A stretch of DNA of 64,000 nucleotides from Isurus oxyrinchus (lineage: Eukaryota), in NCBI GenBank assembly GCA_026770705.1, contig JANJGN010000052.1, forward strand, positions 2,914,001 through 2,978,000, written 5' to 3'. The position numbers and the translations under genes were made by a program. This document shows, in pieces, positions 7,924 through 60,590 of this stretch (position 1 is its first letter; every line of letters begins with the position of its first letter). The notes under the pieces are model-generated. The model was not told the origin of the DNA, searched no databases, and saw only the letters and a list, made by a program, of their open reading frames with translations.

Positions 7924-8172
7924 TCAGTTTTTCTGGAACCTGATCTGTGTGTATTCCGTGTCCTCGCTCCTGTGCACAGTCCTGTCACCGCCGGGCAGCT
8001 TTGAAAAGTTGATGTTGGCGTAGAAAAGCTCGTCGGGTTTGTCGGGGTTTCCATGTCCAACATCGCCTCCCACTGGACCTTCAGAGAGACCCCGGGGAGC
8101 TGGGGTCTCCCCCTCACTAGTTGTGTCTCTGGTTGTGTTCTGGGGCTCAGTAATCAGCACGTTCTGTTTGCC
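7924..8172 (-). CDS. Gene C terminal exon with ITIM (LFYANI) and ITSM-like motif (TEYTQI)
   Basis: Acceptor tctctgtag, phase 0, 83 codons to TGA. Motifs at 8011-8028 and 7942-7959 parallel the ELHYASL/TEYSEI tail of CD33-related Siglecs. Confidence 0.9.
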   Translation of the reverse strand, partial: GKQNVLITEPQNTTRDTTSEGETPAPRGLSEGPVGGDVGHGNPDKPDELFYANINFSKLPGGDRTVHRSEDTEYTQIRFQKN

Positions 8173-20066: not shown

Positions 20067-20353
20067 GAGTGACGTCAGAGGGATGGTCTATGAAGGCGCT
20101 GCCTCGGAGGGCCATCAGCAGCTCTTGTGTGGTTATTCCGTGTAGCTTTGACTTTCCTTCCCACTCTTACACAGCACTGCACGGAGCTTGGTATAAATAT
20201 TGGTATAGATGGAAATATACCATCACATACACCAAAGATCCCAATTATGGGATGGCCACATTCGTGGGACGTGCTAAAATAATCGGCGACTTGGAAGGGA
20301 AGAATTGTTCAGTGAGGATTGACAGTCTCAGAGCTGAAGACAGTGACGTGTAT
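20067..20353 (+). pseudogene. Gene D Siglec/MAG-like V-set exon truncated in the F strand
   Basis: Acceptor tttcag, phase 1; W..SSCVVIPCSFDFP..HGAWY..GRAKIIGDLEGKNCSVRIDSLRAEDSDVY, then retrotransposon sequence and a stop. Confidence 0.85.
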
Positions 20354-21485
20354 TGCACCCAATTCTAAATCTTTTCACCAATTAGTCGACCTCATGAAGA
20401 TGTGTTTTCAGCTGAAGCCGTGGGTAATAATGCAGAGGTTTAAGTTTAACTCCAGAGTAAGGGCCCAGGGAGAGTCCATCGCAACCTATACAGTGAAGTG
20501 GAAGCAGGTGACTGAACACTGGGACCTCGGAGACACACTCAATGACATGTTGCGGGGCCGATTGGTTTGTGTCGTTCACCCCAACGCCATTCAGAGCCGT
20601 TTACTCGCAGAAGCCGACATCGATTTGAAGCGCACCATGGAAATAGCGCCAGGCATGGAAAGTGCTGGGAGAGACTGGCGGGATCTACAGGAATATGCAA
20701 CATGGCGCCAGTCCTCAGCTGGGACAGGAACCAACCACCGGGCGTGAGGCTCAAACTGGAGAGAGAGAGAGAGAGAGGGAGAGAGAGAGAGAGACAGCCG
20801 CCAAGCGAGAGACAGTCTCTGCCGCTCCAGAAACTAAAAGCCTTCGTGGGAGTATTTCAGCAGCAACTCCGAAGTTGGCCTGTTCTCGATGTGGGGGGGA
20901 GTGAGCTCGTACCGGACACCTGCAGGTTCAAGGGGGCAGAATGCCATCACTGCCACAAGAAAGGGGCGGGTAATAAAGCAATGCAGGGTGAAATCGAGAC
21001 AGCCCATCAGGCAGTGCACCAACATGATGGAAGTGAATAATATCACAGAGCCTGAAGCTGCTGATACCGATGTCTATTCCCTGTCCAATGTCACAGTGGT
21101 AAAAACTGAACCTATAACCATCACAACCCAAGTGAATGGGCAGCCACTAGTAATGGGGCAGATACGGGAGCCTCAGACACAGTGGTGGAAGAGCCCACAT
21201 TTAAACAGCTAAATGAAGGAACCCAGACGCTGAATTTAGAGCCAACAATGGATCAGCTGAAGACACACACTGGAGAATCCATACAGGGAAAGGACCTCAT
21301 CCCAGTACCTGTGTCCTACAGGCAGCAGACAGCCCAGCTTCCAGTGATCATAGCGACAGGTGAGGGCCCTAGTCTTCTGGGCCGAGACTGGTTCCAGAAA
21401 ACCAAGCTCAGCTGCTCTGAAATGTTTCACTGGAGGAGTTGCTGAGTTGCTGGGGGAATATGAGAGTGTATCTCGGAATGAGTTT
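20354..21485 (+). mobile_element. Ty3/Gypsy LTR retrotransposon internal fragment (gag, zinc knuckle, protease), decayed
   Basis: QRFKFNSRVRAQGESIATY..LNDMLRGRLVC (gag), CRFKGAECHHCHKKG (knuckle), VNGQPL..DTGA and SLLGRDW (aspartic protease), with frameshifts. Confidence 0.85.
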
Positions 21486-34448: not shown

Positions 34449-34588
34449 TCAAACAGTCTGTCGACTTCCTTTCACTGTTTGTCTCTCCCAGACACAGACT
34501 CCAGCGATAGTGATAACCACAGCCACAAGGAATATCACAGCTCGTATTCCCAGGATCAGGATCACGTGCAGAATCTCTCCTCCACTGT
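34449..34588 (-). CDS. Activating-type TM exon SGGEILHVILILGIRAVIFLVAVVITIAGVCVWERQTVKGSRQTV* (gene B)
   Basis: Acceptor gttctctag, phase 1, long hydrophobic run with one Arg (CGA 34542-34544), 12-residue tail, TGA at 34449-34451, probable donor gtcagt after 34427. Confidence 0.82.
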
Positions 34589-39870: not shown

Positions 39871-39884
39871 TACATTAGGAGCAT

Positions 39885-40495
39885 CATTGGGAGCAGCATT
39901 TCACTTGCACTTCCCTCAATTTAATCTACTGCCTTCACTGCTCCCAATGTGGTCTCCTCTACATGGGACAGACCAAACACAGACTGGGTGATCGCTCTCA
40001 TGAACACCTTCGGTCTGTCCGCAAGCATGACCCAGACCTCCCTGTCGCTTGCCATTTTAACACCCCACCCTGCTCTCATGCCCACATGTCCGTCCTTGGC
40101 CTGCTGCATTGTTCCAGTGAAGCCCAACACAAACTGGAGGAACAGCACCTCATCTTCCGACCTGGCACTTTACAGCCTTCCCGACTGAATATTGAGTTCA
40201 ACAATTTCAGATCATGAACTCTCTCCTCCATCCCCACCCCCTTTCCAATCTCCCTTTTTCCAATAATTGATCATTTTTAATATTTTTTTTTATTTATATA
40301 TTTTTCTTTTCCCACCTATTTCCATTATTTTTAAATGTTTTACATCTGTTGTATCTCTCCCTTTTAGCCTATTTCAATCCTTTCCCCCCACCCCACCCCC
40401 ACTAGGACTATCTGTCTCTTGCTCGTCCTGCTTTCTACCCTTAATGTCCCCATTAGCACATTCCTCAGATAATATCACCACCGTCAACACCCCTT
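39885..40495 (+). mobile_element. Penelope-like element fragment (GIY-YIG endonuclease C-terminus)
   Basis: YMGQTKHRLGDRSHEHLRSV..PVACHFN..KLEEQHLIFRPGTLQPSRLNIEF. Confidence 0.85.
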
Positions 40496-40926: not shown

Positions 40927-41043
40927 TTATAAATTCCCATAAACAGAATCCTCAGCAAATTCACAGTTTGCGTAAAGATCATCATCTGTATCAGGATTGA
41001 CTCCGCGGTTAGATTTCATTTCCAGATCCTTCACATCTTTCTT
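40927..41043 (-). CDS. Gene A terminal coding exon KKDVKDLEMKSNRGVNPDTDDDLYANCEFAEDSVYGNL*
   Basis: Acceptor tttctattacag, phase 0, 39 codons ending in TAA, two tyrosine motifs in an acidic context. Confidence 0.8.
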   Translation of the reverse strand, partial: KKDVKDLEMKSNRGVNPDTDDDLYANCEFAEDSVYGNL

Positions 41044-41139
41044 CTGTAATAGAAACAGAAATGATCAGAGTGACAATCAGAGGATCAGTGTTTAGTATTA
41101 TTGATCCTAATCGAAAATTCCACCCACAATAGATACATT

Positions 41140-42143
41140 AATTATTGATACTGAACAGGGTTTGATTATTGATACTGAACAGGGTTTGATTATTGATACT
41201 GAACGGGGTTTGATTATTGATACTGAACGGGGTTTGATTATTGATTCTGAATGGGATTTGTTTATTGATTCTGAACGGGGTTTGATTATTGATACTGAAC
41301 GGGGTTTGATTATTGATACTGAATGGGGTTTGATTATTGATTCTGAACGGGGTTTGATTATTGTTACTGAACGGGGTTTGATTATTGATACTGATCGGGG
41401 GTTGATTATTGATACTGAATGGAGGTTGATTATTGATTCTGAATGGTGTTTGATTATTGATACTGAACGGGGTTTGATTATTGTTACTGAACGGGGTTTG
41501 ATTATTGACACTGAACGGGGTTTGATTATTGATTCTGAACGGGGTTTGATTATTGATACTGTACGGGGTTTGATTATTGATTATGAACGGGTTTTGATTA
41601 TTGATACTGAACGGGGTTTGATTATTGATTCTGAATGGGGTTTGATTATTGATACTGTATGGGGTTTGATTATTGATTATGAACGGGTTTTGATTATTGA
41701 CACTGAACAGGGTTTGATTATTTATACTGAACGGTGTTTGATTATTGATCCTGAACGGAGTTTGATTATTGATCCTGAAAGGGGTTTGATTATTGATACT
41801 GAACTGGGTTTGATTATTGATACTGAACTGGGTTTGATTATTGATTCTGAAAGGAGTTTGATTATTGATACTGAATGGGGTTTGATTATTGACATTGAAC
41901 GGGGTTTGATTATTGATTCTAAACGGTGTTTGATTATTGATACTGAACGGGGTTTGTTTATTGATTCTGAACAGTGTTTGATTATTGATTCTGAAAGGGG
42001 TTTGATTATTGATACTGTACGGGGTTTGATTATTGATTCTGAACGGGGTTTGATTATTGATACTGAACGGGGTTTGATTATTGATTCTGAACGGGGTTTG
42101 ATTATTGATACTGAACGGGGTTTGATTATTGATTCTGAACGGT
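41140..42143. repeat. 24-bp minisatellite TTATTGATACTGAACGGGGTTTGA, about 42 copies
   Basis: Direct inspection; 8-aa periodicity in overlapping ORFs. Confidence 0.95.
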
Positions 42144-42275
42144 GTTGGGTGTGAGTTTGGTTGGGTTTGGGAGTGACTGTATAAAACATTGCAGATACAG
42201 GACTGGAGCAGCCATATCAATAACCAGGCTACTGGAGCAGCTGAGAGGCTGGGGATCCTGTGGTGTGTGACTCAC

Positions 42276-42380
42276 CTGATTCCTCAAAGCCCAACCACGC
42301 TCACAGTTTTCATAAACAGGACCTCGATATTCATCAACATGATGGTTCGATTTGATTCCTGCTTTCCCCTCGCCTCTCTT
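42276..42380 (-). CDS. Gene A cytoplasmic exon, KRGEGKAGIKSNHHVDEYRGPVYENCE..; frame and 3' end ambiguous
   Basis: Strong acceptor ctctgttacag. The phase-0 translation aligns with the terminal exon (K..KSN...YxNCE). Two candidate donors: GTGAGC (exon end 42305) and GTGAGT (exon end 42276). Confidence 0.65.
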
Positions 42381-42727
42381 CTGTAACAGAGATGGAAATG
42401 GACAGAGAGAATATCAACATGATGTGTATTCGGTGTTGGGTTTGATTATTGGGGAGAGAGTTCCAGATTTCCACTCTCCTTTGTGTGAAGAAGTGCTTCC
42501 TGACATCACCCCTGAACGGCCTGTCTCCAATCTGAAGTTCCAGCCCCCTTGTTCTGGACTCCACCCGACCCCCACCACCCACCCCCACCCGAGGGAATAG
42601 CTTCTCTCTATCAACCCTATCGAGTGTTTAATTATTTTGAACCCCTCAGTTACATCACTCCTTTAATCTTCTAGACCTGAGGGAATATAATCGTAGACTG
42701 TGTGTAACCTGTCTGCATAATTTAACC

Positions 42728-43120
42728 AGAAAGATGTTCTGTACAACAGACTTGAGCCTCACACCCAGATCTCAATAATCAGTAGAAATCTTTCAAAGGC
42801 ATCAATCATTGGAATCTGTCTTTATTAAGTCACAACACTAACAAAGGACGGTGTTGATGGTGGAAGTGAATTCCAATCGTTCCGTTACTTACCCAGTACC
42901 TGTCCGACTGCTCGCCTGGGGAGGAACTGCCCACACGCTCTGCTTGGGCTGAATGACCTCTTCCTGTGCTGCTCCCTCTGTGTATTTAATGAGAAAGGGT
43001 GGATGTGTCACTGTGAATCAAATCAGGAATTGGGGAACAATTGTGAAAACCCTTTCACTGAAATGTAGGGCCTTAGTGTTGTGTTGTAAGCAAACTGTTA
43101 ACCCTTTGTGTCCTGACTCT
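42728..43120 (-). repeat. Extra copy of the promoter/first-exon block inside gene A (exon end 42893)
   Basis: Near-identical to 38330-38700 and 60280-60640. Confidence 0.85.
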
Positions 43121-43735
43121 GTGACGTGATTCCTGTGTAAAGCTGAGCAGTCGTTGAGCGAGTTTCAATTCACTGCTCAATCCAGCTGTTGAGCTGGATC
43201 TTCTGAAGGAGCAGATGTTGCTCAGCGCTCCTTAAAAATGTGAGAGACTGAACAACGTGTAGGAGAATGAGAGAGAGAATGAGAAGGAGAGCATTAGTGG
43301 AGATAAGAGAGAGAGTGAATGAGAGAGAGAATGAGAAGGAGAGCATTAGTGGAGATTGGAGAGAGAGGGAATGAGAGAAAAAATGAGAAGGCGTGCATTA
43401 GTGGAGATAAGAGAGAGAGTGAATGAAACATGGAAAAAGGAAAGAGATTGCATTCACTAACAAAAGAAACGTTTTCATTTATATAGCTCCTTTCACATCC
43501 TCAGTAGGTCACAAGGTATCTTATGGTCCAGGTCAACACTGCCTGTTACAGGACTGAGTTGTGAAACAGTGAGTGTTGGATGAGATGTTAAACAGTAGGT
43601 GAAAATCAAAACTCTTCAGGGGCTGTGAAGGGTTCTGGGTTGTGAAAGGTGCTATAGAAATGCAAGTTCTTTCTATAAGGAGAGAAGTTTGAAGAAAACA
43701 TTTTCAAAAACAACCAATTAAACCTTCACACTTAC

Positions 43736-43832
43736 TTTCTCACACACTTGAAGATGAAGAATCCACTCAGTCCAACACTCAAACAGATTCCAGCTCCAAG
43801 CAATCCTGCTTTCCATTCATTGGAATCTCGCC
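43736..43832 (-). CDS. Gene A transmembrane exon RDSNEWKAGLLGAGICLSVGLSGFFIFKCVRK
   Basis: 97 nt, ttttacag|...|gtaagt, phase 1-2. Same length as, and homologous to, the TM exon at 10364-10460. Confidence 0.88.
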
Positions 43833-44049
43833 CTGTAAAATCAGCCAATGAATGACTCCGGTACAGTTTGAGAATGGTTCCCTATGTACATGTAGTAATT
43901 CTGAATTTGTGAAGTGATATTGTCTATGCATGAAAGGTCTATACAAATAACATTTATCTATGTAATATTTATTGATAATATCCATGTACATGCAGGTTTC
44001 TATAAGGAGGATTCACATATAACAGAGGTGCCAAGCTGCTGAGGTGACA

Positions 44050-45060
44050 CACAGGACTACATACACACCAAACAGCGGAAACAACATGCTATAGACAGAG
44101 CAAAGCGATCCCACAACCAACGGGTCAGATCTAAGCTCTGCAGTCCTGCCACATCCAGTCATGAATGGTGATGGACAATTAAAGATCTAACAGGAGGAGG
44201 ATGTTCCACAAATATCCCCATCCTTAATGATGGGGGAGCTCAGCACATCAGTGCAAACGACAAGGCTGAAGCATTGGCAACCATGTTCAGCCAGAAGTGC
44301 TGAGTGGATGCTCCATCTCGGCCTCCTCCAGAGGGTCCCAGCATCACAGATGTCAGCTTTCAGACAATTCGATTGACTCCACGTGACATCAGCAATCAGC
44401 TGATGATACTGGATACAGCAAAGGCTATTGGCCCTGGCAACAACCCAGCAACAGGAAATAATGTGGCTACAACTGCGGGTAAGAGGCTGGGAACTCTGCG
44501 GTGAGTAACTCACCTCCTGACCCCCCAAAGCCTGTCCACCATCGACAAGGCACAAGTCAGGAGTGTGATGGAATAATCTCCAATTGCTTGAATAAGTGCA
44601 GCTCCAACAACACTCAAGAAGCTCGACACCATCCAGGAGCAGCTTGTTTGATCGACAGCCCATCCACCAGCATAAACATTCATACCCTCCACCACTGGCA
44701 CACAATGGCAGCAGTGTGTGCACCATCTACAAGATGCACTGCAGCAACTCACCAAGGCTCCTTCAACAGCACCTTCCAAACTCTTAACCTCTTCCACCAA
44801 GACAGTTCCAAGTCAGTGAGGTGTGTGATTTGGAAGCGAACTTGAGGTGGTGGTCTGCCCTGGGACTTGGAAATATATTGGCCGTTCTTTCACCATCACT
44901 GGGACAAAATCCTGGAACTCCCACCCTAACAGCACTGTGGGTGTACCTACACCACAGGGAATGTAGTGGTTAAAGAAGGCAGCTCACCACCACCTTCTCA
45001 AGGGGCAGTTACAGATGGGCAATAATTTCTGGTCTTGTCAACAATGCCCACATCCCATGA
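44050..45060 (+). mobile_element. Internally deleted LINE of the 29920-31890 family, with 3' end
   Basis: Nucleotide similarity to 29930-30200 and 31680-31860, and to the reverse complement of 5700-6100. Confidence 0.8.
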
Positions 45061-45098
45061 GCTAACAACAAGAGAACGTTCAATTCTGTGTAACTCAT

Positions 45099-45380
45099 GT
45101 TCCACAGTGATGGTTATGAACCCCTCCACTGCTCCATGTTCATTCTCTGCCACACACTGATAGTCTCCAGTGTCCCTGGATGTAAGGTGAGGAATCACCA
45201 ACCACAGCTCATTGTTGGAACTTGTTCTGTTCATTGGGACATTAAGATGTCGCCACGTCAGGTTAGAAGCTGGGAAGCTCTCGACAGAGCAGATTATCAC
45301 TGCAGAATTCCCCTCAATTATATTGATCGATGAAGCGTTAATCATATCAAGAGAATTAATTGAGAGATTCTGTGGTGTGT
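45099..45380 (-). CDS. Gene A domain-3 C2/I-set Ig exon with mutated splice donor
   Basis: 282 nt open frame (IICSVESFPASNLTW..DTGDYQCVAENEHG). Acceptor ttttcag is intact, but the donor reads ATGAGT where paralogous copies read GTGAGT. Confidence 0.8.
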
Positions 45381-46203
45381 CTGAAAACAAATAAAGATCA
45401 TTACTTACATTGACTGTGAAACGCTTTGAGAGACACTGAGAATGTGAAAGGTGTGATATCAATGTAGGTTCCTTCACCACAAAGCACTTAATTCAGGCAG
45501 ACACTTCAGTTCAGTACTGAGGGAGTGCTGTATTGTTGGAGAGTCAGTACTGATGGAGTGCTGCACTGTTGGAGGGTCAGTACTGAGGTAGTGCTGCACT
45601 GTGGGAGGGTCAGTACTGAGGGAGAGCTGCCCTCTTGGCGCGTGAGTACTGATGACCTGCTGCACTGTTGGAGGGCAGGTACTGTGAAAGCTGCACTGCC
45701 GCATAGTCAGTACTGAGCAAGTACTTCACTGTCAGAGAATCAGTACTGAGGGAGTGCTGAACTGTTGGAGGATCAGTACTGAGGGAGTGCTGCACTGTTG
45801 GAGGATCAGGACTGAGGGAGTGGTGCACTGTCAGAGGGTCAGTACTGAGGGAGTGCTGCACTGTTGGAGGGTCAGTACTGAGGGAGTGCTGCACTGTTGG
45901 AGGGTCAGTACTAGGGGAGTGTTGCACTGTTGGAGGGCCAGTACTGGAAGAGTGCTGCACTCTCGGAGGGTCAGTACTTAGGGAATGCTGCACTGTCGGA
46001 GGGTCAGTACTGAGGGAGTGCTGCACTGTCGGAGGGTCAGTAATTAGGGAGCTCTGCACTGTTGGAGGGTCAGTACTGAGGGAGTGCTGCACTGTTGGAG
46101 GGTCAATACTTAGGGAATGCTGCACTGCCAGAGGGTCAGTACTGAGGGAGTGCTGCACTGTTGGAGGGTCAGTAATTAGGGAGATCTGCACTGTCGGAGG
46201 GTG

Positions 46204-47090
46204 ATAAGACCATAAGACCACAGGACGTCAGAGCAGAAGGAGGCCATTCGGCCAATCAACTCTGCTCCACCATTCAATGACACCATGGCTGATCTGACAA
46301 TCCTCAACTCCACTTTCCTGCCTCTTCCCCATAGCCTTTGATTCCCTGACTGATTAAAAAACTGTGTATCTCAGCCTTGAATATAATTAATGACCCAGAC
46401 TCTGCAGCTCTCTGTAGTAAATAATTCCACACATTCACTACCCTCTGAGGGAAGAAACTCCTCATCTCTATCTTAAATGGGTGACCCCTTACTCTGAGAT
46501 TATGCCCTCTGGTCCTAGACTCTCCCACAAGGGGAAACAACCTCTCAGCATCTACCCTGTCAAGCACCCTAAGAATCTTATATGTTTCAATAAGGTCAGC
46601 TCTCATTCTCCTAAACTCCAATGAGTACAGGCCCATCCTACTCAACATCTCCTCATATGAAAATCCCTCCATTACTGGGATCAACCTAGTGAACCTTCTC
46701 TGGACTGCCTCCAATGCCAGTACATCTTTCCTTAGATAAGGGAACCAAAACTGCTCACAGTATTCTAGGTGTGGTCTAACTAGTGCCTTGTATAGTTTTA
46801 GCAAGGCTTCCCTATTTTTATACTCCATTCCCTTTGAAATAAAGGTCAGCATTCCAAATACTATGTGCATTTAAGTAAAGAGCCATTAATTTTGTCTTTT
46901 TATCATTTCCCCCCCTCTGACACTATTTGCTGATGTATTTTTATGTTTGGACACTGTGTCCCTTCCTGTCACACACTGGGTATCATTGCCAAAAAGCTAT
47001 CCTGCAATGCTGACAAATCCTTTTGGTTTGTAACTGTACATATACCCTCTCCAGAAACATTCGCCCCACACTCTATTTAGTTTAAAGCCA
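46204..47090 (-). mobile_element. Internally deleted copy of the same CR1
   Basis: 3' part joined to the endonuclease start at ttcca (about 46852). Confidence 0.9.
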
Positions 47091-47514
47091 ATAGTGAGGT
47101 AGTGCAGCACTGTCAAAGGGTCAGTACTGAGGGAGTGCTGCATGTGGGAGGGTCAGTACTGAGGGAGTGCTGCACTGTGGGAGGGACAGTACTGAGTGAG
47201 TGCTGCATGTGGGAGGGTCAGTACTGAGGGAGTGCTGCACTGTGGGAGGGTCAGTACTGAGTGAGTGCTGCATGTGGGAGGGTCAGTACTGAGGGAATGC
47301 TGCATGTGGGAGGGTCAGTACTGATGGAGTGGTGCACTGTCAGAGGGTCAGTACTGAGGGAGTGCTGCACTGTCGGAGGGTCAGTACTGAGGGAGTGCTG
47401 CACTGTCGGAGGGTCAGTAATTAGGGAGCTCTGCACTGCCAGAGTGTCAGTACTGAGGGTGTTCTGCACTGTTGGAGGGTCAGTAATTAGGGAGATCTGC
47501 ACTGTCGGAGGGTG

Positions 47515-48400
47515 ATAAGACCATAAGACCACAGGACGTCAGAGCAGAAGGAGGCCATTCGGCCAATCAACTCTGCTCCGCCATTCAATGACACCATGGC
47601 TGATCTGACAATCCTCAACTCCACTTTCCTGCCTCTTCCCCATAGCCTTTGATTCCCTGACTGATTAAAAAACTGTGTATCTCAGCCTTGAATATAATTA
47701 ATGACCCAGCCTCTGCAGCTCTCTGTAGTAAATAATTCCACACATTCACTACCCTCTGAGGGAAGAAACTCCTCATCTCTGTCTTAAATGGGTGACCCCT
47801 TACTCTGAGATTATGCCCTCTGGTCCTAGACTCTCCCACAAGGGGAAACAACCTCTCAGCATCTACCCTGTCAAGCACCCTAAGAATCTTATATGTTTCA
47901 ATAAGGTCAGCTCTCATTCTCCTAAACTCCAATGAGTACAGGCCCATCCTACTCAACCTCTCCTCATATGAAAATCCCTCATTACTGGGATCAACCTAGT
48001 GAACCTTCTCTGGACTGCCTCCAATGCCAGTACATCTTTCCTTAGATAAGGGAACCAAAACTGTTCACAGTATTCTAGGTGTGGTCTAACTAGTGCCTTG
48101 TATAGTTTTAGCAAGGCTTCCCTATTTTTATACTCCATTCCCTTTGAAATAAAGGTCAGCATTCCAAATACTATGTGCATTTAAGTAAAGAGCCATTAAT
48201 TTTGTCTTTTTATCATTTCCCCCCCTCTGACACTATTTGCTGATGTATTTTTATGTTTGGACACTGTGTCCCTTCCTGTCACACACTGGGTATCATTGCC
48301 AAAAAGCTATCCTGCAATGCTGACAAATCCTTTTGGTTTGTAACTGTACATATACCCTCTCCAGAAACATTCGCCCCACACTCTATTTAGTTTAAAGCCA
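47515..48400 (-). mobile_element. Second internally deleted CR1 copy
   Basis: Same deletion junction as 46204-47090. Confidence 0.9.
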
Positions 48401-49019
48401 ATAGTGAGGTAGTGCAGCACTGTCAAAGGGTCAGTACTGAGGGAGTGCTGCATGTGGGAGGGTCAGTACTGAGGGAGTGCTGCACTGTGGGAGGGACAGT
48501 ACTGAGTGAGTGCTGCATGTGGGAGGGTCAGTACTGAGGGAGTGCTGCACTGTGGGAGGGTCAGTACTGAGTGAGTGCTGCATGTGGGAGGGTCAGTACT
48601 GAGGGAATGCTGCATGTGGGAGGGTCAGTACTGAGGGAGTGCTGCACTGTGGGAGGGTCAGTACTGAGGGAGTGCTGCATGTGGGAGGGTCAGTACTGAG
48701 GGAGTGCTGCACTGTTGGAGGGTCAGTACTAGGGGAGTGTTGCACTGCTGGAGGGCCAGTACTGGAAGAGTGCTGCACTCTCGGAGGGTCAGTACTTAGG
48801 GAATGCTGCACTGTCGGAGGGTCAGTACTGAGGGAGTGCTGCATTGTCGGAGGGTCAGTAATTAGGGAGCTCTGCACTGTTGGAGGGTCAGTACTGAGGG
48901 AGTGCTGCACTGTTGGAGGGTCAATACTTAGGGAATGCTGCACTGCCAGAGGGTCAGTACTGAGGGAGTGCTGCACTGTTGGAGGGTCAGTAATTAGGGA
49001 GATCTGCACTGTCGGAGGG

Positions 49020-52000
49020 TGATAAGACCATAAGACCACAGGACGTCAGAGCAGAAGGAGGCCATTCGGCCAATCAACTCTGCTCCGCCATTCAATGACA
49101 CCATGGCTGATCTGACAATCCTCAACTCCACTTTCCTGCCTCTTCCCCATAGCCTTTGATTCCCTGACTGATTAAAAAACTGTGTATCTCAGCCTTGAAT
49201 ATAATTAATGACCCAGCCTCTGCAGCTCTCTGCAGTAAAGAATTCCACACATTCACTACCCTCTGAGAGAAGAAACTCCTCATCTCTGTCTTAAATGGGT
49301 GACCCCTTACTCTGAGATTATGCCCTCTGGTCCTAGACTCTCCCACAAGGGGAAACAACCTCTCAGCATCTACCCTGTCAAGCACCCTAAGAATCTTATA
49401 TGTTTCAGTAAGGTCAGCTCTCATTCTCGTAAACTCCAATGAGTACAGGCCCATCCTACTCAACATCTCCTCATATGAAAATCCCTCATTTCTGGGATCT
49501 ACCTAGTGAACCTTCTCTGGACTGCCTCCAATGCCAGTACATCTTTCCTTAGATAAGGGAACCAAAACTGCTCACAGTATTCTAGGTGTGGTCTAACTAG
49601 TGCCTTGTAAAGTTTTAGCAAGGCTTCCCTATTTTTATACTCCATTCCCTTTGAAATAAAGGCCAACATTCCACCTGCCTTCCCTATTAACTGTTGAACT
49701 TGTATGTTATCTTTCTGATGACCCCCAAATTCCTCTATGCTTCACCTTTCCAATGTCTTTCTCCATTGAAATAATATTCAGCTCCTCTATACATCCTGCC
49801 ACAGTGCAGCAGCTCACATTTTCCCACATTATATTCCATCTGCCAAGTTGATGTCCACTCACTGAACCTGTCTATGTCCCTCTGTAGACTCTTTGTGTCA
49901 CCCTCACCACTTGCCTTCCCATCTATTTTTGTGTCATCCACAAACTTGGCGATAGTACATTAATTTCCCTCATCCAAGTCATTAATTATATTTTGTAAAT
50001 AATTGTGGCCCCAGCACTGATCCCTGTGGCACTCCACAGGTTGCCATCTTGAAAATGCCCCCCTTATCCCAACTCTCTGACTTCTATTAGTTCGCCGATC
50101 CTCTATCCATGCTAATATACTGCCCCCAACACCATGGGCTCTTATCTTATTAAGTAGCCTTATATGTGGTACTTTACTGAACAACTTTTGGAAATCCAAA
50201 TATATTACATCTACTGGTTCCCCTTTATCTATCCTGTTTGTTACCTCCTCAAAGAATTCTAATAAATTTGTCATGCATGATTTCACCTTCATGAAGCCTG
50301 TGTGTGATTAAATTATGCATTTCTAAATAGTCTGCTATTACATCCTTTATAATGGACTCTAACATGTTCCCAATGACAGATGTTAAGCTAACTGGCCTAT
50401 AGTTACCTGTTTGTTGTCTCCCTCCCTTTTTGAATATGGGTGTTACATTGGCAGTTTTCCAATCCTCTGGGAGTTTCCCAGAATCTAAGGATTCTTGGAA
50501 GATTAAAACCAGTACATCCACTATCTCTGCATCTACTTCCTTTAATATCCTAAGATGCAACCTATCAGGTCCAGGGGACCTATCAGCCTTGAGACCCATT
50601 AATTTCGCTAGCGTTATTCTCTAGTGATAGTTACTGTATTTATTTCCTCTCCCCACCCCCCTTTTGCCCCTTGATTATTTAGTATTTTTGGAATGATATT
50701 AGTGTGTTCTACCGTGAAGACTGATGCAAAGTATTTATTCAACTCCTCTGTCATTTCCTGGTTCCTCATTATTATTTCCCCAGCCTAGTTCTCTAAGGGG
50801 CCCATGTTCACTTTGGTCTCTCTCTCCCTTTTTATATATTTAAAGAAGCTTTTATTGTCCTTTTTTATATCAATTACTAGTTTACCTAGTTTTCTCCCTC
50901 TTTATTTATTTTTTGGTCATCTTCTGTTGGTTTTTAAATCTCTCTCAATCCTCTGGCTTACCACTAATCTTTGTCGTGTTGCATGTTTTTTCTTTCAATT
51001 TGACACACACCTTAACTTCTTTGGGTAACCCAGGTTGGTTTATTCTCTTCCTACAATCCTTCTTCCTCACTGGGATATATCTTTGTTGTGAGTCATGAGC
51101 TATTTTCTTTAACATCTGCTTTTGTTCATCCAGCATCTTTTCTGCTAAACCCCTTTCCCAGTCCACTCCAGACAACCCTGTCCTTATTCCTTTGTAATTA
51201 CACTTATTTAAGTCCAGCACAGTTGTTTCCGACCCAGGTTTCTCAGTCTCAAACGGAATGCTAAATTCTACCATGTTATGGTCACTGTTTTCCAGGGGAT
51301 CATTTATTCTGAGATCATGTATGAAACCTGCCTCATTACACATTACCAGATCCAAAATAGCCTGATCCCTGGTTAGATCCACGACATATTATTCCAGGAA
51401 ACTGTCTTGAATACACTCTATGAATTCTTGCTCATGGCTACCTCTGCCAATTGGGTTTTCCCAATCTACATGAAGATTAATGTACTGCCTTTTTTACATG
51501 CCCTCATTATCTCATGATTTATTCTCTGTCCTACAGCCGAGCTACAGTCATGGGGCTGATAGACCACTCCCACCAGTTCCTTGTTCCCCTTGTTATTCAT
51601 TACCTCGAGCCATATGGATTCTATACCCTCCGATCCAAGATCATTTCTTGCTTTCGTACTTATTCCATCTCCTATTAACAAAGCTACCCCACCACCTTTC
51701 CTTCCTGCCTGTCTTTTTGAAAAGTCACATACCCCTGAATATTTATTTCAAAGCTTTGATCTCCTTGTAACCATGTCTCCATAATGGCTATAAGATCAAA
51801 CCCATTAACCTCTATTTGTACCTTTAATTCATTTATGTTGTTCCAAATACTATGTGCATTTAAGTCAACAGCCATTAATTTTGTCTTTTTATCATTTTCC
51901 TCCCTCTGACACTATTTGCTGATGTATTTTAATGTTTGGACACTGTGTACCCACCTGTCACACACTGGGTATCATCACCAAAACAGCTATCCTGCAATGC

Positions 52001-52075
52001 TGACAAATCCTTTTGCTTTGTAAGCCTACATATACCCTCTCCAGAACACTCTCCCCATCTATTTGGTTTAAGGCA
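49020..52075 (-). mobile_element. CR1 LINE, nearly full ORF2 (APE endonuclease + RT), frameshifted
   Basis: NAHSIWN..DLIAIMETWL (endonuclease), WKTANVTPIFKKG..NYRPVSLTS, VIYLDFQK, DDTK; short tandem repeat (TCTTATGG) at the 3' end. Confidence 0.93.
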
Positions 52076-53162
52076 ATACTGAGGGAGAGCAGCACTGTCA
52101 AAGGGTCATTACTGAGGGAGTGTTGCACAGTTGGAAGCTCTGGAACAAGGGACTGCAGCATTATCTGAGGGTCAGTCGGGAGGGAGGTATTCAATGTTGG
52201 ATTGCAAGTTCTGAGGGAGCGCTGCAGAGTTGGAGGTTCAGTAGTGAAGGAGTGCTGCACTGTCAGAGGGTCAGTACTGAGGGAGTGCTACACTGTCAGA
52301 GGGTCAGTACTGAGGGAGTGCTGCACTGTTGGAGGGTCAGTACTGTGGGAGTGCTGCAGTGACGGAGGATCAGTACGGAGAGATTTCTAAACTGTTGGAG
52401 GATCAGTACTGAGGGAGTGCTGCACTGTCAGAGGGTCAGTACTGAGGGAGTGCTGCACTGTCAGAGGGTCAGTACTGAGGGAGTGCTGCACTGTCAGAGG
52501 CTCAGTACTGAGAGAGTGTTGCACTATCAGAGGGACAGGACTGAGGGAGTGCTGCACTGTCAGAGGGACAGGACTGAGGGAGTGCTGCACTGTTAGAGGG
52601 TCAGTACTGAGGGAGTGCTGCACTGTCAGAGGGTCAGTACTGAGGGAGTGCTGCACTGTCGAAGGGTCAGTTCTGAGGGAGTGCTGCACTGTCAGAGGGT
52701 CAGTACTGAGGGAGTGCTGCACTGTCGCAGGGTCATTATTGAGGGAGTGCTGCGATGTCGGAGGATCAGTACTGAGGGAGTGCTGCACGATCAGGGGGTA
52801 AGTACTGAGGGAGTGCTACACTGTTGGAGGTTCAGTACTGAGTGAGTGCTGCACTGTTGGAGGGTCAGTACTAAGGGAGTGCTGCACTGTCAGAGGGTCA
52901 GTACTGAAGGAGTGCTGCACTGTCGGACAGTCAGTACTGAGGGAGTGCTGCACTGTCAGAGGATCAGAACTGAGGGAGTGCTGCACTGTCAGAGAGTCAG
53001 TACTGAGGCAGTGCTGCACTGTCAGAGGGTCAGTATTGAGGGAGTGCTGCACTGTTGGAGGGTCAATACTTAGGGAATGCTGCACTGCCAGAGGGTCAGT
53101 ACTGAGGGAGTTCTGCACTGTTGGAGGGTCAGTAATTAGGGAGATCTGCACTGTCGGAGGGT

Positions 53163-56100
53163 GATAAGACCATAAGACCACAGGACGTCAGAGCAGAAGG
53201 AGGCCATTCGGCCAATCAACTCTGCTCCGCCATTCAATGACACCATGGCTGATCTGACAATCCTCAACTCCACTTTCCTGCCTCTTCCCCATAGCCTTTG
53301 ATTCCCTGACTGATTAAAAAACTGTGTATCTCAGCCTTGAATATAATTAATGACCCAGCCTCTGCAGCTCTCTGTAGTAAATAATTCCACACATTCACTA
53401 CCCTCTGAGAGAAGAAACTCCTCATCTCTGTCTTAAATGGGTGACCCCTTACTCTGAGATTATGCCCTCTGGTCCTAGACTCTCCCACAAGGGGAAACAA
53501 CCTCTCAGCATCTACCCTGTCAAGCGCCCTAAGAATCTTATATGTTTCAATAAGGTCAGCTCTCATTCTCCTAAACTCCAATGAGTACAGGCCCATCCTA
53601 CTCAACCTCTCCTCATATGAAAATCCCTCCATTACTGGGATCAACCTAGTGAACCTTCTCTGGACTGCCTCCAATGCCAGTACATCTTTCCTTAGATAAG
53701 GGAACCAAAACTGCTCACAGTATTCTAGGTGTGGTCTAACTAGTGCCTTGTATAGTTTTAGCAAGGCTTCCCTATTTTTATACTCCATTCCTTTTGAAAT
53801 AAAGGCCAACATTCCACCTGCCTTCCCTATTAACTGTTGAACTTGTATGTTATCTTTCTGATGACCCCCAAATTCCTCTATGCTTCACCTTTCCAATGTC
53901 TTTCTCCATTGAAATAATATTCAGCTCCTCTATACATCCTGCCACAGTGCAGCAGCTCACATTTTCCCACATTATATTCCATCTGCCAAGTTGATGCCCA
54001 CTCACTGAACCTGTCTATGTCTCTCTGTAGACTCTTTGTGACACCCTCACCACTTGCCTTCCCATCTATTTTTGTGTCATCCACAAACTTGGCGAAAGTA
54101 CATTAATTTCCCTCATCCAAGTCATTAATTATATTTTGTAAATAATTGTGGCCCCAGCACTGATCCCTGTGGCACTCCACAGGTTGCCATCTTGAAAATG
54201 CCCCCCTTATCCCAACTCTCTGACTTCTATTAGTTAGCCGATCCTCTATCCATGCTAATATACTGCCCCCAACACCATGGGCTCTTATCTTATTAAGTAG
54301 CCTTATATGTGGTACTTTACTGAACAACTTTTGGAAATCCAAATATATTACATCTACTGGTTCCCCTTTATCTATCCTGTTTGTTACCTCCTCAAAGAAT
54401 TCTAATAAATTTGTCATGCATGATTTCACCTTCATGAAGCCTGTGTGTGATTAAATTATGCATTTCTAAATAGTCTGCTATTACATCCTTTATAATGGAC
54501 TCTAACATGTTCCCAATGACAGATGTTAAGCTAACTGGCCTATAGTTACCTGTTTGTTGTCTCCCTCCCTTTTTGAATATGGGTGTTACATTGGCAGTTT
54601 TCCAATCCTCTGGGAGTTTCCCAGAATCTAAGGATTCTTGGAAGATTAAAACCAGTACATCCACTATCTCTGCATCTACTTCCTTTAATATCCTAAGATG
54701 CAACCTATCAGGTCCAGGGGACCTATCAGCCTTGAGACCCATTAATTTCGCTAGCATTATTCTCTAGTGATAGTTACTGTATTTATTTCCTCTCCCCACC
54801 CCCCTTTTGCCCCTTGATTATTTAGTATTTTTGGAATGATATTAGTGTGTTCTACCGTGAAGACTGATGCAAAGTATTTATTCAACTCCTCTGTCATTTC
54901 CTGGTTCCTCATTATTATTTCCCCAGCCTAGTTCTCTAAGGGGCCCATGTTCACTTTGGTCTCTCTCTCCCTTTTTATATATTTAAAGAAGCTTTTATTG
55001 TCCTTTTTTATATCAATTACTAGTTTACCTAGTTTTCTCCCTCTTTATTTATTTTTTGGTCATCTTCTGTTGGTTTTTAAATCTCTCTCAATCCTCTGGC
55101 TTACCACTAATCTTTGTCGTGTTGCATGTTTTTTCTTTCAATTTGACACACACCTTAACTTCTTTGGGTAACCCAGGTTGGTTTATTCTCTTCCTACAAT
55201 CCTTCTTCCTCACTGGGATATATCTTTGTTGTGAGTCATGAGCTATTTTCTTTAACATCTGCTTTGTTCATCCAGCATCTTTTCTGCTAAACCCCTTTCC
55301 CAGTCCACTCCAGACAACCCTGTCCTTATTCCTTTGTCATTACACTTATTTAAGTCCAGCACAGTTGTTTCCGACCCAGGTTTCTCAGTCTCAAACGGAA
55401 TGCTAAATTCTACCATGTTATGGTCACTGTTTTCCAGGGGATCATTTATTCTGAGATCATGTATGAAACCTGCCTCATTACACATTACCAGATCCAAAAT
55501 AGCCTGATCCCTGGTTAGATCCACGACATATTATTCCAGGAAACTGTCTTGAATACACTCTATGAATTCTTGCTCATGGCTACCTCTGCCAATTGGGTTT
55601 TCCCAATCTACATGAAGATTAATGTACTGCCTTTTTTACATGCCCTCATTATCTCATGATTTATTCTCTGTCCTACAGCCGAGCTACAGTCATGGGGCTG
55701 ATAGACCACTCCCACCAGTTCCTTGTTCCCCTTGTTATTCATTACCTCGAGCCATATGGATTCTATACCCTCCGATCCAAGATCATTTCTTGCTTTCATA
55801 CTTATTCCGTCTCCTATTAACAAAGCTACCCCACCACCTTTCCTTCCTGCCTGTCTTTTTGAAAAGTCACATACCCCTGAATATTTATTTCAAAGCTTTG
55901 ATCTCCTTGTAACCATGTCTCCATAATGGCTATAAGATCAAACACATTAACCTCTATTTGTGCCATTAATTCATTTATTTTGTTCCAAATACTATGTGCA
56001 TTTAAGCCAAGAGCCATTAATTTTGTATTTTTATCATTTTCCTCCCTCTGACACTATTTGCTGATGTATTTTAATGTTTGGAAACTGTGTACCCACCTGT

Positions 56101-56215
56101 CACACACTGGGTATCATCACCAAAACAGCTATCCTGCAATGCTGACAAATCCTTTTGCTTTGTAAGCCTACATATACCCTCTCCAGAACACTCTCCCCAT
56201 CTATTTAGTTTAAAG
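53163..56215 (-). mobile_element. Duplicate of the CR1 at 49020-52075
   Basis: Near-identical sequence with the same ORF fragments and breakpoints. Confidence 0.93.
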
Positions 56216-56895
56216 GCAATACTGAGGGAGAGCAGCACTGTCAAAGGGTCATTACTGAGGGAGTGTTGCACAGTTGGAAGCTCTGGAACAAGGGACTGCA
56301 GCATTATCTGAGGGTCAGTCGGGAGGGAGGTATTCAATGTTGGATTGTAAGTTCTGAGGGAGCGCTGCAGAGTTGGAGGTTCAGTAGTGAAGGAGTGCTG
56401 CACTGTCAGAGGGTCAGTACTGAGGGAGTGCTGCACTGCCAGAGGATCAGTACTGAGGGAGTGCTGCACTGTTGGAGGGTCAGTACTGTGGGAGTGCTGC
56501 ACCGACGGAGGATCAGTACGGAGAGATTTCTAAACTGTTGGAGGCTCAGTACTGAGGGAGTGTTGCACTGTCATAGGGTCAGTACTGAGGGAGTGCTGCA
56601 TTGTCATAGGGTGAGTACTGAGGGAGTGCTGCCCTGTCAGAGGGTCAGTATTGAGTGAGTGCTGCACTGTCAGGGGGTGAGTACATTGTGATTCCTGCTC
56701 TGCTCTATCGGTCTCTTGGCTGGAAATAAAAGCCGCTGTGTTACTGTTCAGAAACTGTTATTAATTGTGTTCTGGTCACTATTTTCCCTAAAAAACAGAT
56801 TATCTGATTCTCATCAGAATACCTTTCTATGGGATCCTGCTGTGCATTATCTACACTGTTCCAGCTAATGTAGAATGAAAGGTGTCCGTACTTAC

Positions 56896-57192
56896 ATTGC
56901 ACAGTCAGTACGAGGGTCTGCTCCGATGAAACAGATGGATATCTCACTCTGCAGCTGAAAGTGTGTCCGTGGTGTTTGAGTGATGGGATCAGGGTCAGAA
57001 CAGAAGTATAGGTCAGAGTGACACCATGCTGAGTTACAGTGTTTGAGACTGATCCAGGTACGTCAGTGGGAGTGTCCCAGGTTAAGACAGGTGCTGCTGT
57101 TCCATTGCACGTTGTGTTGATGGTGCAGCTTACATCCACACGCTTTCCTGCAATAATTTCAGCAGGGAATATCGTGGGTTTATCTGTGAAAT
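56896..57192 (-). CDS. Gene A domain-2 C2-set Ig exon
   Basis: 297 nt, phase 1-1, ttag|...|gtaagt. DFTDKPTIFP..VSCTINTTCNGTAAPVLTW..TSVLTLIPSLKHHGHTFSCRV has the extra Cys and layout of Siglec domain 2. Confidence 0.92.
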
Positions 57193-58051: not shown

Positions 58052-58420
58052 CAGAAACCTGAAGCTGGGTTACAGGGTAATAGTTATGGCTCGGACCATT
58101 GTCAAATTCTTTCCTGAAAAAATAAGGTCCTGCATCTTCCCGTCTGATGCTGTTTGTAAGCAGGGAACAGTCGCCATCTTTCAAGTCTCCAGACAGCCGG
58201 GTCCGATGGTGGAACCGTGGTAACTCATGACTGTGATCCTTGGCGTGAAAGGCTATGGGAGCCCAGGGAATCTGTTCCTCATTATTAAACCAGACTCCAC
58301 CTCGCGGTTGGCTTTCCAAATGTGATGGATAACTGTAATGACATGGAATCTGTACACACGAACCTTCCTGCGCTGTCACCTCTCGGGGACTGTCACCTTT
58401 CCACTCTTGTGACTGTCCAA
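58052..58420 (-). CDS. Gene A Siglec V-set Ig exon (intact, essential Arg present)
   Basis: 369 nt, phase 1-1, ccccag|...|gtaagt. Contains GSCVQIPC, GDCSL and DAGPYFFR: the Siglec B/E-strand cysteines and the F-strand Arg (AGG at 58113-58115). Confidence 0.93.
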
Positions 58421-59955: not shown

Positions 59956-59995
59956 CTTGGAGAAGTGACAGGAGGAAGTAAGATTTCCCGATCAT
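59956..59995 (-). CDS. Gene A signal-peptide exon, MIGKSYFLLSLLQ (exon 59956-60037)
   Basis: Pyrimidine-rich CAG acceptor, ATG at 59995, 40 coding nt, phase-1 donor CAAG|gtaata. Hydrophobic leader continues into the V exon. Confidence 0.85.
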
Positions 59996-60446
59996 TGTCC
60001 ACTCCCAGATATTTCCTCAGCTTCTAACTCTGAAGTTCTGAAAGAGAAAGGAGTTAATGAGACCTCACCTCTTGTCCGACAGCTCTCGAGAGATCAGAAC
60101 TGCTTTTAGACAATGTCTTCACGGATCTAATTTGATTCTCTGTGGGATGATAGGTGCTCTGCAGAGAGTTACAAGGCTTTAAGAAAGAAAAACATTGAAG
60201 GACTTGCATTTCTATAGCACCTTTCACCACCTCAGGATATCCCAAAGCTCATGTCCCTGCACTTCCCTCATCCCTTGAGCTAGAAAGATGTTCTGTACAA
60301 CAGACTTGAGCCTCACACCCAGATCTCAATAATTAGTAGAAATCTTTCAAAGACATCAATCATTGGAATCTGTCTTTATAAAGTCACAACATCAACATAG
60401 GACGGTGTTGGTCGTGGAAGTGAATTCCAATCGTTCCGTTACTTAC

Positions 60447-60590
60447 CCAGTACCTGTCCGACTGCTCGCCTGGGGAGGAACTGCCCACACGCTCTGCTTG
60501 GGCTGAATGACCTCTTCCTGTGCTGCTCCCTCTGTGTATTTAATTAGAAAGGGTTGATGTGTCTCTGTGAGTCAAAATGTGGAAGTGGTC
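60447..60590 (-). promoter_or_regulatory. Putative promoter and non-coding first exon of gene A
   Basis: GTAAGT donor (plus strand acttac 60441-60446), Inr-like TCATTC at about 60505-60510, TAAATA-like box about 34 nt upstream and an ETS core GGAAGTG at 60581-60587. The same block recurs three more times in the window. Confidence 0.5.

Follow-up and report, generated by a model that had tools for sequence, protein, structure and literature searches.

The window analyzed here, a 64,000-nucleotide (nt) stretch of Isurus oxyrinchus DNA (GCA_026770705.1, contig JANJGN010000052.1, positions 2,914,001 to 2,978,000), contained a tandem cluster of Siglec-like shark genes, most of them on the minus strand. 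Two exons in it, T1 and T2, are predicted to be the last two exons of one such gene (gene A), whose cytoplasmic tail would lack an activation motif of the immunoreceptor tyrosine-based kind (ITAM), recruit adaptors of the Grb2 family at as many as three YxN sites, and make the receptor a co-stimulating partner of paralogues with inhibitory motifs of that kind (ITIMs); we give this reading as a whole a probability of about one-half. Its components were graded separately: Grb2-family binding by the YxN tail is likely from the motif sequences; the tail, judged by the same motifs, is not an ITAM; and it is most likely a multivalent Grb2 scaffold of the immunoglobulin tail tyrosine (ITT) type. As far as aligned tails tell, such tails form a class found across the family and are not peculiar to gene A.

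Conserved YxN motifs in shark and ray tails

The initial annotation had proposed an adaptor-like tail whose three motif tyrosines were all YxN, and both points were supported at the sequence level: the sites were YENC in T1 and YANC and YGNL in T2, and the last pair read DDLYANC-x7-YGNL. Motif conservation among shark relatives, which had been set as a check, was traced in tails picked by position with Asn not required, giving 19 distinct tails (that of the window included) from 13 shark and ray species. The YxN sites were kept across these 13 species: Asn was present at +2 of the last tyrosine in 19/19 tails and of the first in 17/19, compared to a background of 115 of the 1703 tyrosines in 91 family proteins. 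Around the last tyrosine, positions +1, +3, and -2 were variable, while the first tyrosine had Cys at +3 in 16/19 tails, Asp or Asn at -2 in 19/19, and Asp or Glu at -3 in 13/19. YxNM was limited to two ray tails, and the gene A tail contained two further tyrosines that were not YxN, one in the linking exon upstream of T1 and one in T1.

The tails of the ITIM class (27 compared) never had Asn at +2 of the distal site, and 26/27 of them had a hydrophobic residue at -2 of the proximal tyrosine. The YxN class is thus marked, in these alignments, by the absence of ITIM determinants together with Asn at the terminal tyrosine.

The tail profile gave 17 matches among 7010 candidates, all from sharks or rays, with no bony-fish or tetrapod protein found by this insensitive search; a word-based search with T2 alone gave no match (4 candidates). 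An all-representatives search returned four matches, of which three repetitive proteins were dropped and the catshark protein P0003 was the only true relative.

Duplication of T1 and T2

The two peptides described in the initial annotation lay on the minus strand and corresponded to clean phase-0 exons, T1 extending 8 residues beyond the NCE at which it had been ended, to RGWALRNQ. The proposed exon duplication held, T1 and T2 being alike beyond chance at three levels: (i) protein, with an alignment score reached by 60/10000 shuffles; (ii) DNA, with scores reached by 0/2000 shuffles for the exon alone, 0/2000 with the intron flank, and 0/1000 dinucleotide-block shuffles; and (iii) family profiles, with an HHalign probability of 96% over 28 columns, reached by 0/60 column shuffles. 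The DNA alignment continued about 60 nt into the upstream intron. T1 retained the first YxN, lost the last tyrosine and the stop, and had a donor; it was removable without frame change.

The duplication is old: sharks of three orders (basking, great white, smooth-hound, whale, zebra, and epaulette) had T1 with intact YENC ahead of T2. T1 was degenerate in Chiloscyllium punctatum, and no T1 was present in the Heptranchias and Pristiophorus gene models. A T2-type end was found on unrelated membrane exons in two ray proteins (P0018 and P0098) and one catshark protein (P0003), which suggests that T2 may be the older module. The ray tails ended in YANM, which has the YxNM form known from DAP10 and CD28, and had three YxN sites as well.

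Exon structure and reading frame of gene A

Gene A displayed the Siglec layout, an N-terminal Siglec-type V-set domain, then C2-set domains, then a single membrane span (Pfam and exon map), and the nearest database proteins to the window genes in the V-exon search came from great white and basking sharks. The best solved relatives of its V domain were Siglec-5, MAG, and Siglec-7 (about 1e-13). Its YFFR aligned with that of Siglec-5, and we take the Arg of this motif to be the essential F-strand Arg of Siglecs. No Pfam family matched the membrane, T1, or T2 pieces, and the ESM Atlas search gave scores of 0.81 or less only.

The membrane exon ended in phase 2, and its direct splicing to T1 would give a stop before any tail tyrosine; the linking exon 42977-42893, absent from the initial annotation, is therefore required for the frame given here. 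With it, gene A was open over 463 amino acids (aa), the length of basking-shark P0043, and its membrane-to-stop part was identical to P0097 at 124/133 and to P0043 at 112/133 positions. Other acceptors for the linking exon (43247, 43230, 43202, 43132, and 43010) were rejected for stops or a poor donor.

Contigs of 4/21 sequencing runs (X1, X5, X6, and X7) were compared with 42150-45450; the membrane exon was not covered by X1 and X5, nor T1 by X5 and X7, which carries no weight either way. The membrane-to-link joint (43736-42977) was present in X6 and X7, with short sides of 18 and 35 letters, respectively. The joint from the membrane-proximal Ig exon C2b to the membrane exon (45099-43832) was seen in both of these runs, with short sides of 30 and 19 letters, below the 31-letter bar. 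Contigs of X1 and X6 ended exactly at the T1 borders 42276-42380, the listed differences sparing the tyrosines, and an X7 contig ran from 43012 over the acceptor of the linking exon to its donor.

The linking exon recurred on the minus strand with identities of 85/85 nt (60531-60447), 84/85 (38578-38494), and 80/85 (39225-39142); the copies at 60531 and 38578 were each followed by a leader start some 450 nt downstream, and those at 38578-38494 and 39225-39142 preceded gene B, a neighbouring gene. In the chimeric basking-shark model P0042, a link-type copy was spliced onto the leader exon. On account of the nearby leader starts, the P0042 splice, and the X7 contig from 43012, the same sequence probably serves both as a 5' non-coding exon and as a coding exon, and reuse of an untranslated exon with ongoing conversion is possible from these identities. 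Homology to the linking exon of gene C, another neighbour, was unsupported (score reached by 97/1000 shuffles). The upstream flanks of the copies contained ACTTCC and TGACTCA-like motifs, which we take to be PU.1 and AP-1 consensus sites.

Tail classes and shared ectodomains

The family set comprised 88 proteins from the V-exon search and three more from the tail profile, with P0003 coming from a separate search. Pattern rules divided 91 proteins into 33 of ITIM type, 20 of YxN type, 7 with an Arg-containing membrane exon and short tail, and 31 partial or chimeric models, the last being excluded from the trees. The trees were quick ones that included isoform duplicates and automatic models. 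In the V + C2 tree (55 rows), tail class required 15 changes and taxonomic order 6, and the rows nearest to gene A were great-white Arg-membrane and ITIM proteins. In the ectodomain tree of the YxN and ITIM classes only (45 rows), class required 10 changes and order 6, the strongly supported branches by themselves requiring at least 5 class changes. In the poorly resolved membrane-exon tree (51 rows, 29 columns), class required 2 changes and order 8.

The window by itself, without gene models, displayed shared ectodomain exons on different tails in linked genes: the C2b exon of gene A (YxN) agreed with the C2 exons of gene C (ITIM type) at 268-276 of about 282 nt (95-98%), and half of C2b recurred in gene B at 49/50 residues. 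Because ectodomains mix among the three tail classes and the membrane exon sorts by class, the sequence pattern is that of paired receptors. Coupling to an adaptor of the DAP12/FcR-gamma type was not indicated for gene A, the membrane core of which was uncharged; the gene B exon contained Arg. The YxN-class membrane span (43830-43738) was Gly-rich, with a mean hydrophobicity of 1.97 compared to 2.53 in gene C, and might favour dimerisation.

Proposed signalling and alternative readings

In the proposed mechanism, the V domain would bind sialic acid, and ligand clustering would lead to phosphorylation of the tail by Src- or Syk-family kinases. These kinases prefer substrates with acidic residues and Leu/Ile/Val before Tyr, and such residues preceded each motif tyrosine of the tail. 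SH2 domains of Grb2, Grap, or Gads would then occupy up to three phosphorylated YxN sites, and the outcome would be stimulation by way of Sos, Vav, or Gab, on the model of DNAM-1, DAP10, and the IgG tail. T1 would raise the adaptor valence by one, to three, in the manner of LAT. The Grb2 SH2 domain prefers pYxNV and binds CD22 pYENV (PMC5302901), the YxN core is strictly conserved in Ig-tail motifs (PMC4263166), and DNAM-1 and DAP10 activate via Grb2 (PMC7226588). YGNL occurs in SIT and TRIM; it was a potential Grb2 site in SIT in a 1999 paper, which showed no direct interaction (PMC2193021), and SIT-Grb2 binding was inducible per a later paper (PMC3177817). A co-stimulatory outcome is favoured because ITIM determinants were not conserved and the ectodomains tracked inhibitory paralogues. 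The statement of the initial annotation that the sign of the tail is unreadable from one sequence stands, family comparison only tilting it toward stimulation.

Several points weigh against this reading. Grb2 sites inhibit in TIGIT via SHIP-1 (PMC7226588), in CD22 via PMCA (PMC6286995, PMC5302901), and in SIT (PMC3177817), so the odds of co-stimulation are moderate, and the existence of an Arg-membrane, activating-type class lessens the need for the YxN class to activate. Asn was also present at +2 of the proximal tyrosine in 23/27 ITIM-class tails, and part of the Asn conservation may therefore be inherited; Cys at +3 (16/19) and the fixed 11-residue spacing are not accounted for; 4/19 tails came from tail queries (a mild circularity), and one was the window's own. 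The T1 tyrosine or Asn was lost in Chiloscyllium punctatum (P0027, P0037, and P0096). The link-to-T1 joint was not among the contig rows listed and the T1-to-T2 joint lay outside 42150-45450; both are taken from database gene models in which the sequence is joined in this way. Such proteins are automatic models that can be chimeric in tandem arrays, as P0042 and P0044 are. The sequencing runs came from two related organisms, each exon differing from the window at a few letters, and the status of the runs as RNA is a guess; the membrane tree had 29 columns only. Finally, the C2b donor (position 45098) read C/ATGAGT in this assembly, compared to GTGAGT in four paralogous exons.

An inhibitory tail, acting through Grb2 with SHIP-1 or a calcium pump or through SHP-1/2 at the C-terminal SxYxxL, is possible but on the unlikely side, the precedents TIGIT, CD22, and SIT standing in its favour. 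The loose ITIM fit noted in the initial annotation stood for the window, the SVYGNL of which matches the consensus S/I/V/LxYxxI/V/L (PMC7226588), but was weak for the class: the last tyrosine fitted it in 6/19 tails only and the first in 0/19. Although +3 of the last tyrosine was Leu, Ile, Val, or Met in 17/19 tails and +5 of the first was Phe, Leu, or Tyr in 14/19, -2 of the last was Ala or Pro in 10/19 and -2 of the first was never hydrophobic, and there is already a distinct ITIM class that shares these ectodomains. T2 was weakly like the ITIM exon (13 columns, above 60/60 column shuffles), and the sequences suggest that it may descend from that exon; such descent was not established by the DNA alignments (scores reached by 108 and 126/1000 shuffles) or by HHalign (9.6%).

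Independently of the signalling question, the tail class could be real and this copy of gene A a disabled or secreted allele, with the C2b donor mutated and the intron read through; we consider this fairly improbable. The donor site is a CpG and two paralogous exons contained the complementary decay product T/GT, so the change is plausibly genuine and not an error of the assembly. Read-through past C2b would meet a stop after 33 residues, but skipping of C2b would keep the frame and give a 369-aa receptor, and V-C2-membrane forms exist (P0080). Neighbouring gene B was broken, whereas the remaining exons of gene A were open with intact splice sites, and the relatives splice at exactly the C2b donor place.

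An atypical ITAM or hemITAM for the tandem SH2 domains of Syk, with Cys tolerated at +3, would be surprising. The ITAM-like spacing that had drawn attention in the initial annotation was kept (distance of 11 residues, spacer of 7, in 18/19 tails, the window included), but this is weak evidence because indels are rare in the short T2 exon anyway, and the first half-site had Leu/Ile at +3 in 0/19 tails. Although this half-site had an acidic residue (Asp or Glu) at -3 in 13/19, the full ITAM consensus was found in 0/19. The hemITAM consensus is D/ExxYxxL/I, which the last tyrosine fitted in 4/19 tails, that of the window among them (DxxYxxL).

Trafficking as the main job, with the C-terminal Yxx-hydrophobic motif binding clathrin adaptors in an endocytic receptor of little phospho-signalling, is the least probable: such motifs drive endocytosis (PMC5112662) and Yxx(L/I/V/M) stood at the extreme C-terminus in 17/19 tails, but it would be left unexplained why Asn at +2 is invariant, why the upstream sites end in Cys, and why the T1 duplicate was retained.

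Returning to the co-stimulatory reading, we tentatively extend it to a three-way shark Siglec system, an extension we hold to be rather doubtful: its third class would be a sialic-acid sensor on a LAT-like, ITIM-free, multivalent Grb2 scaffold, with a valence of two or three set by an optional duplicated exon and a connection to the membrane exon through a reused and still homogenised 5' non-coding exon.

Comparison with known receptors

CD22 and Siglec-10/G, like gene A, have a Siglec-type ectodomain and a YxN Grb2 site in the tail (YENV in CD22, one site in Siglec-10/G; PMC6286995, PMC5302901), but this single site lies amid ITIMs, while the shark class had two or three YxN sites and no conserved ITIM. 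ITT and ITT-like chains (IgG/IgE tail, DNAM-1, TIGIT, DAP10, and CD28) share the YxN core, the predicted Grb2 binding, and a context-set sign (PMC4263166, PMC7226588); they have a single motif each, whereas in the shark tail exon duplication has repeated it, and Cys stands at +3 in most cases. LAT, NTAL, SIT, and TRIM likewise present several Grb2-type sites on one unstructured tail, the Grb2 valence of LAT reaching up to three (PMC3291652), but have nearly no ectodomain, while the shark tail sits on a lectin-type receptor. Ectodomains homogenised across genes with different tails are also found in the paired Siglecs 5/14 and 11/16 (PMC5701461) and in the paired CEACAMs of Xenopus, where activating-type tails also contain YxN (PMC5112662). 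Human activating Siglecs signal through DAP10/DAP12 (PMC7226832) and Xenopus activating CEACAMs through ITAM or ITAM-like motifs (PMC5112662); unlike these paired families, the shark family comprised three classes, of which one has a YxN tail of its own.

No description of this shark Siglec tail class was found among the top-ranked matches of the full-text literature, most subscription journals lying outside it; Supplementary file 9 of PMC8455134 lists gene families including Siglecs and could bear on novelty. Within a known receptor family, the YxN tails are a real, conserved, and apparently undescribed class. Mammalian activating Siglecs borrow an ITAM adaptor via a charged membrane residue, and a YxN-only tail class would, if confirmed, be a third signalling mode for the Siglec family. 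Sharks and rays are the oldest lineage with antibody-based immunity; since the YxN class adjoins ITIM and Arg-membrane classes with shared ectodomains, a primate-type paired-receptor arms race would already have been in place in sharks. The expanded shark cluster bears on Siglec origins because a teleost study, which does not mention sharks, reports fish genomes to be without CD33-related inhibitory Siglecs (PMC7226832). The shark tails are short and hence open to direct peptide and chimera tests.

Feature map and neighbouring genes

Table 1. Positions of gene A exons and of tail exons of its neighbours in the window
Feature	Positions	Strand	Remarks
Gene A leader exon, coding part	59956..59995	-	Acceptor at 60037; same leader in P0043
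Gene A Siglec-type V-set exon, YFFR present	58052..58420	-	PF07686, PF24518
Gene A C2-set exon, second domain	56896..57192	-	PF08205, splice sites
Gene A C2b, membrane-proximal Ig exon	45099..45380	-	Pfam Ig_3; donor AT, not GT, in assembly
Gene A transmembrane exon	43736..43832	-	Hydrophobic core without charged residue; exact contig in run X7
Gene A linking cytoplasmic exon, 85 nt, phase 2 to 0	42893..42977	-	Joint in X6 and X7; coding in database proteins
Gene A T1, 105 nt	42276..42380	-	tacag acceptor, CAG/gtgagt donor, phase 0-0
Gene A T2, last coding exon, YANC-x7-YGNL	40927..41043	-	tacag acceptor, phase 0, TAA stop
24-bp minisatellite, about 42 copies, T1-T2 intron	41141..42146	.	
Probable 5' non-coding exon of gene A	60447..60531	-	Identical to linking exon
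Gene B Arg-containing membrane exon, short tail (second tail class)	34449..34588	-	7/91 database proteins end alike
Gene C last exon, LFYANI + TEYTQI, inhibitory-type class	7924..8172	-	33/91 database proteins classed alike

Gene B (38043-34449, minus strand) contained a 1-nt leader deletion, a frameshift and stop in V, a half C2 exon (36402-36253), and an intact membrane exon, and its second domain was not found; from this sequence it has the look of an Arg-membrane-class pseudogene. Its Arg-membrane exon would presumably couple to FcR-gamma, by analogy with known motifs. In gene C (13650-7924, minus strand), three C2 exons stood in tandem and were nearly identical, the tail had an ITIM and TEYTQI, and no same-strand V exon for it was found within the window besides that of gene B. 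A MAG-like V-set exon on the plus strand (20075-20368) ended abruptly ahead of the usual F-strand motif. This V type was also present in great-white P0097, on a tail identical to that of gene A at 124/133 positions, and this combination may reflect domain shuffling or a model error.

Putative poly(A) signals of gene A were located at 40294 and 40281, and directly downstream lay a fragment (39879-40217) that presumably resembles a GIY-YIG (Penelope-type) endonuclease. Between the two C2 exons, the 11.5-kb intron (46000-56700) consisted of repeated blocks of LINE fragments and 33-bp minisatellite, the blocks having apparently been tandemly duplicated several times.
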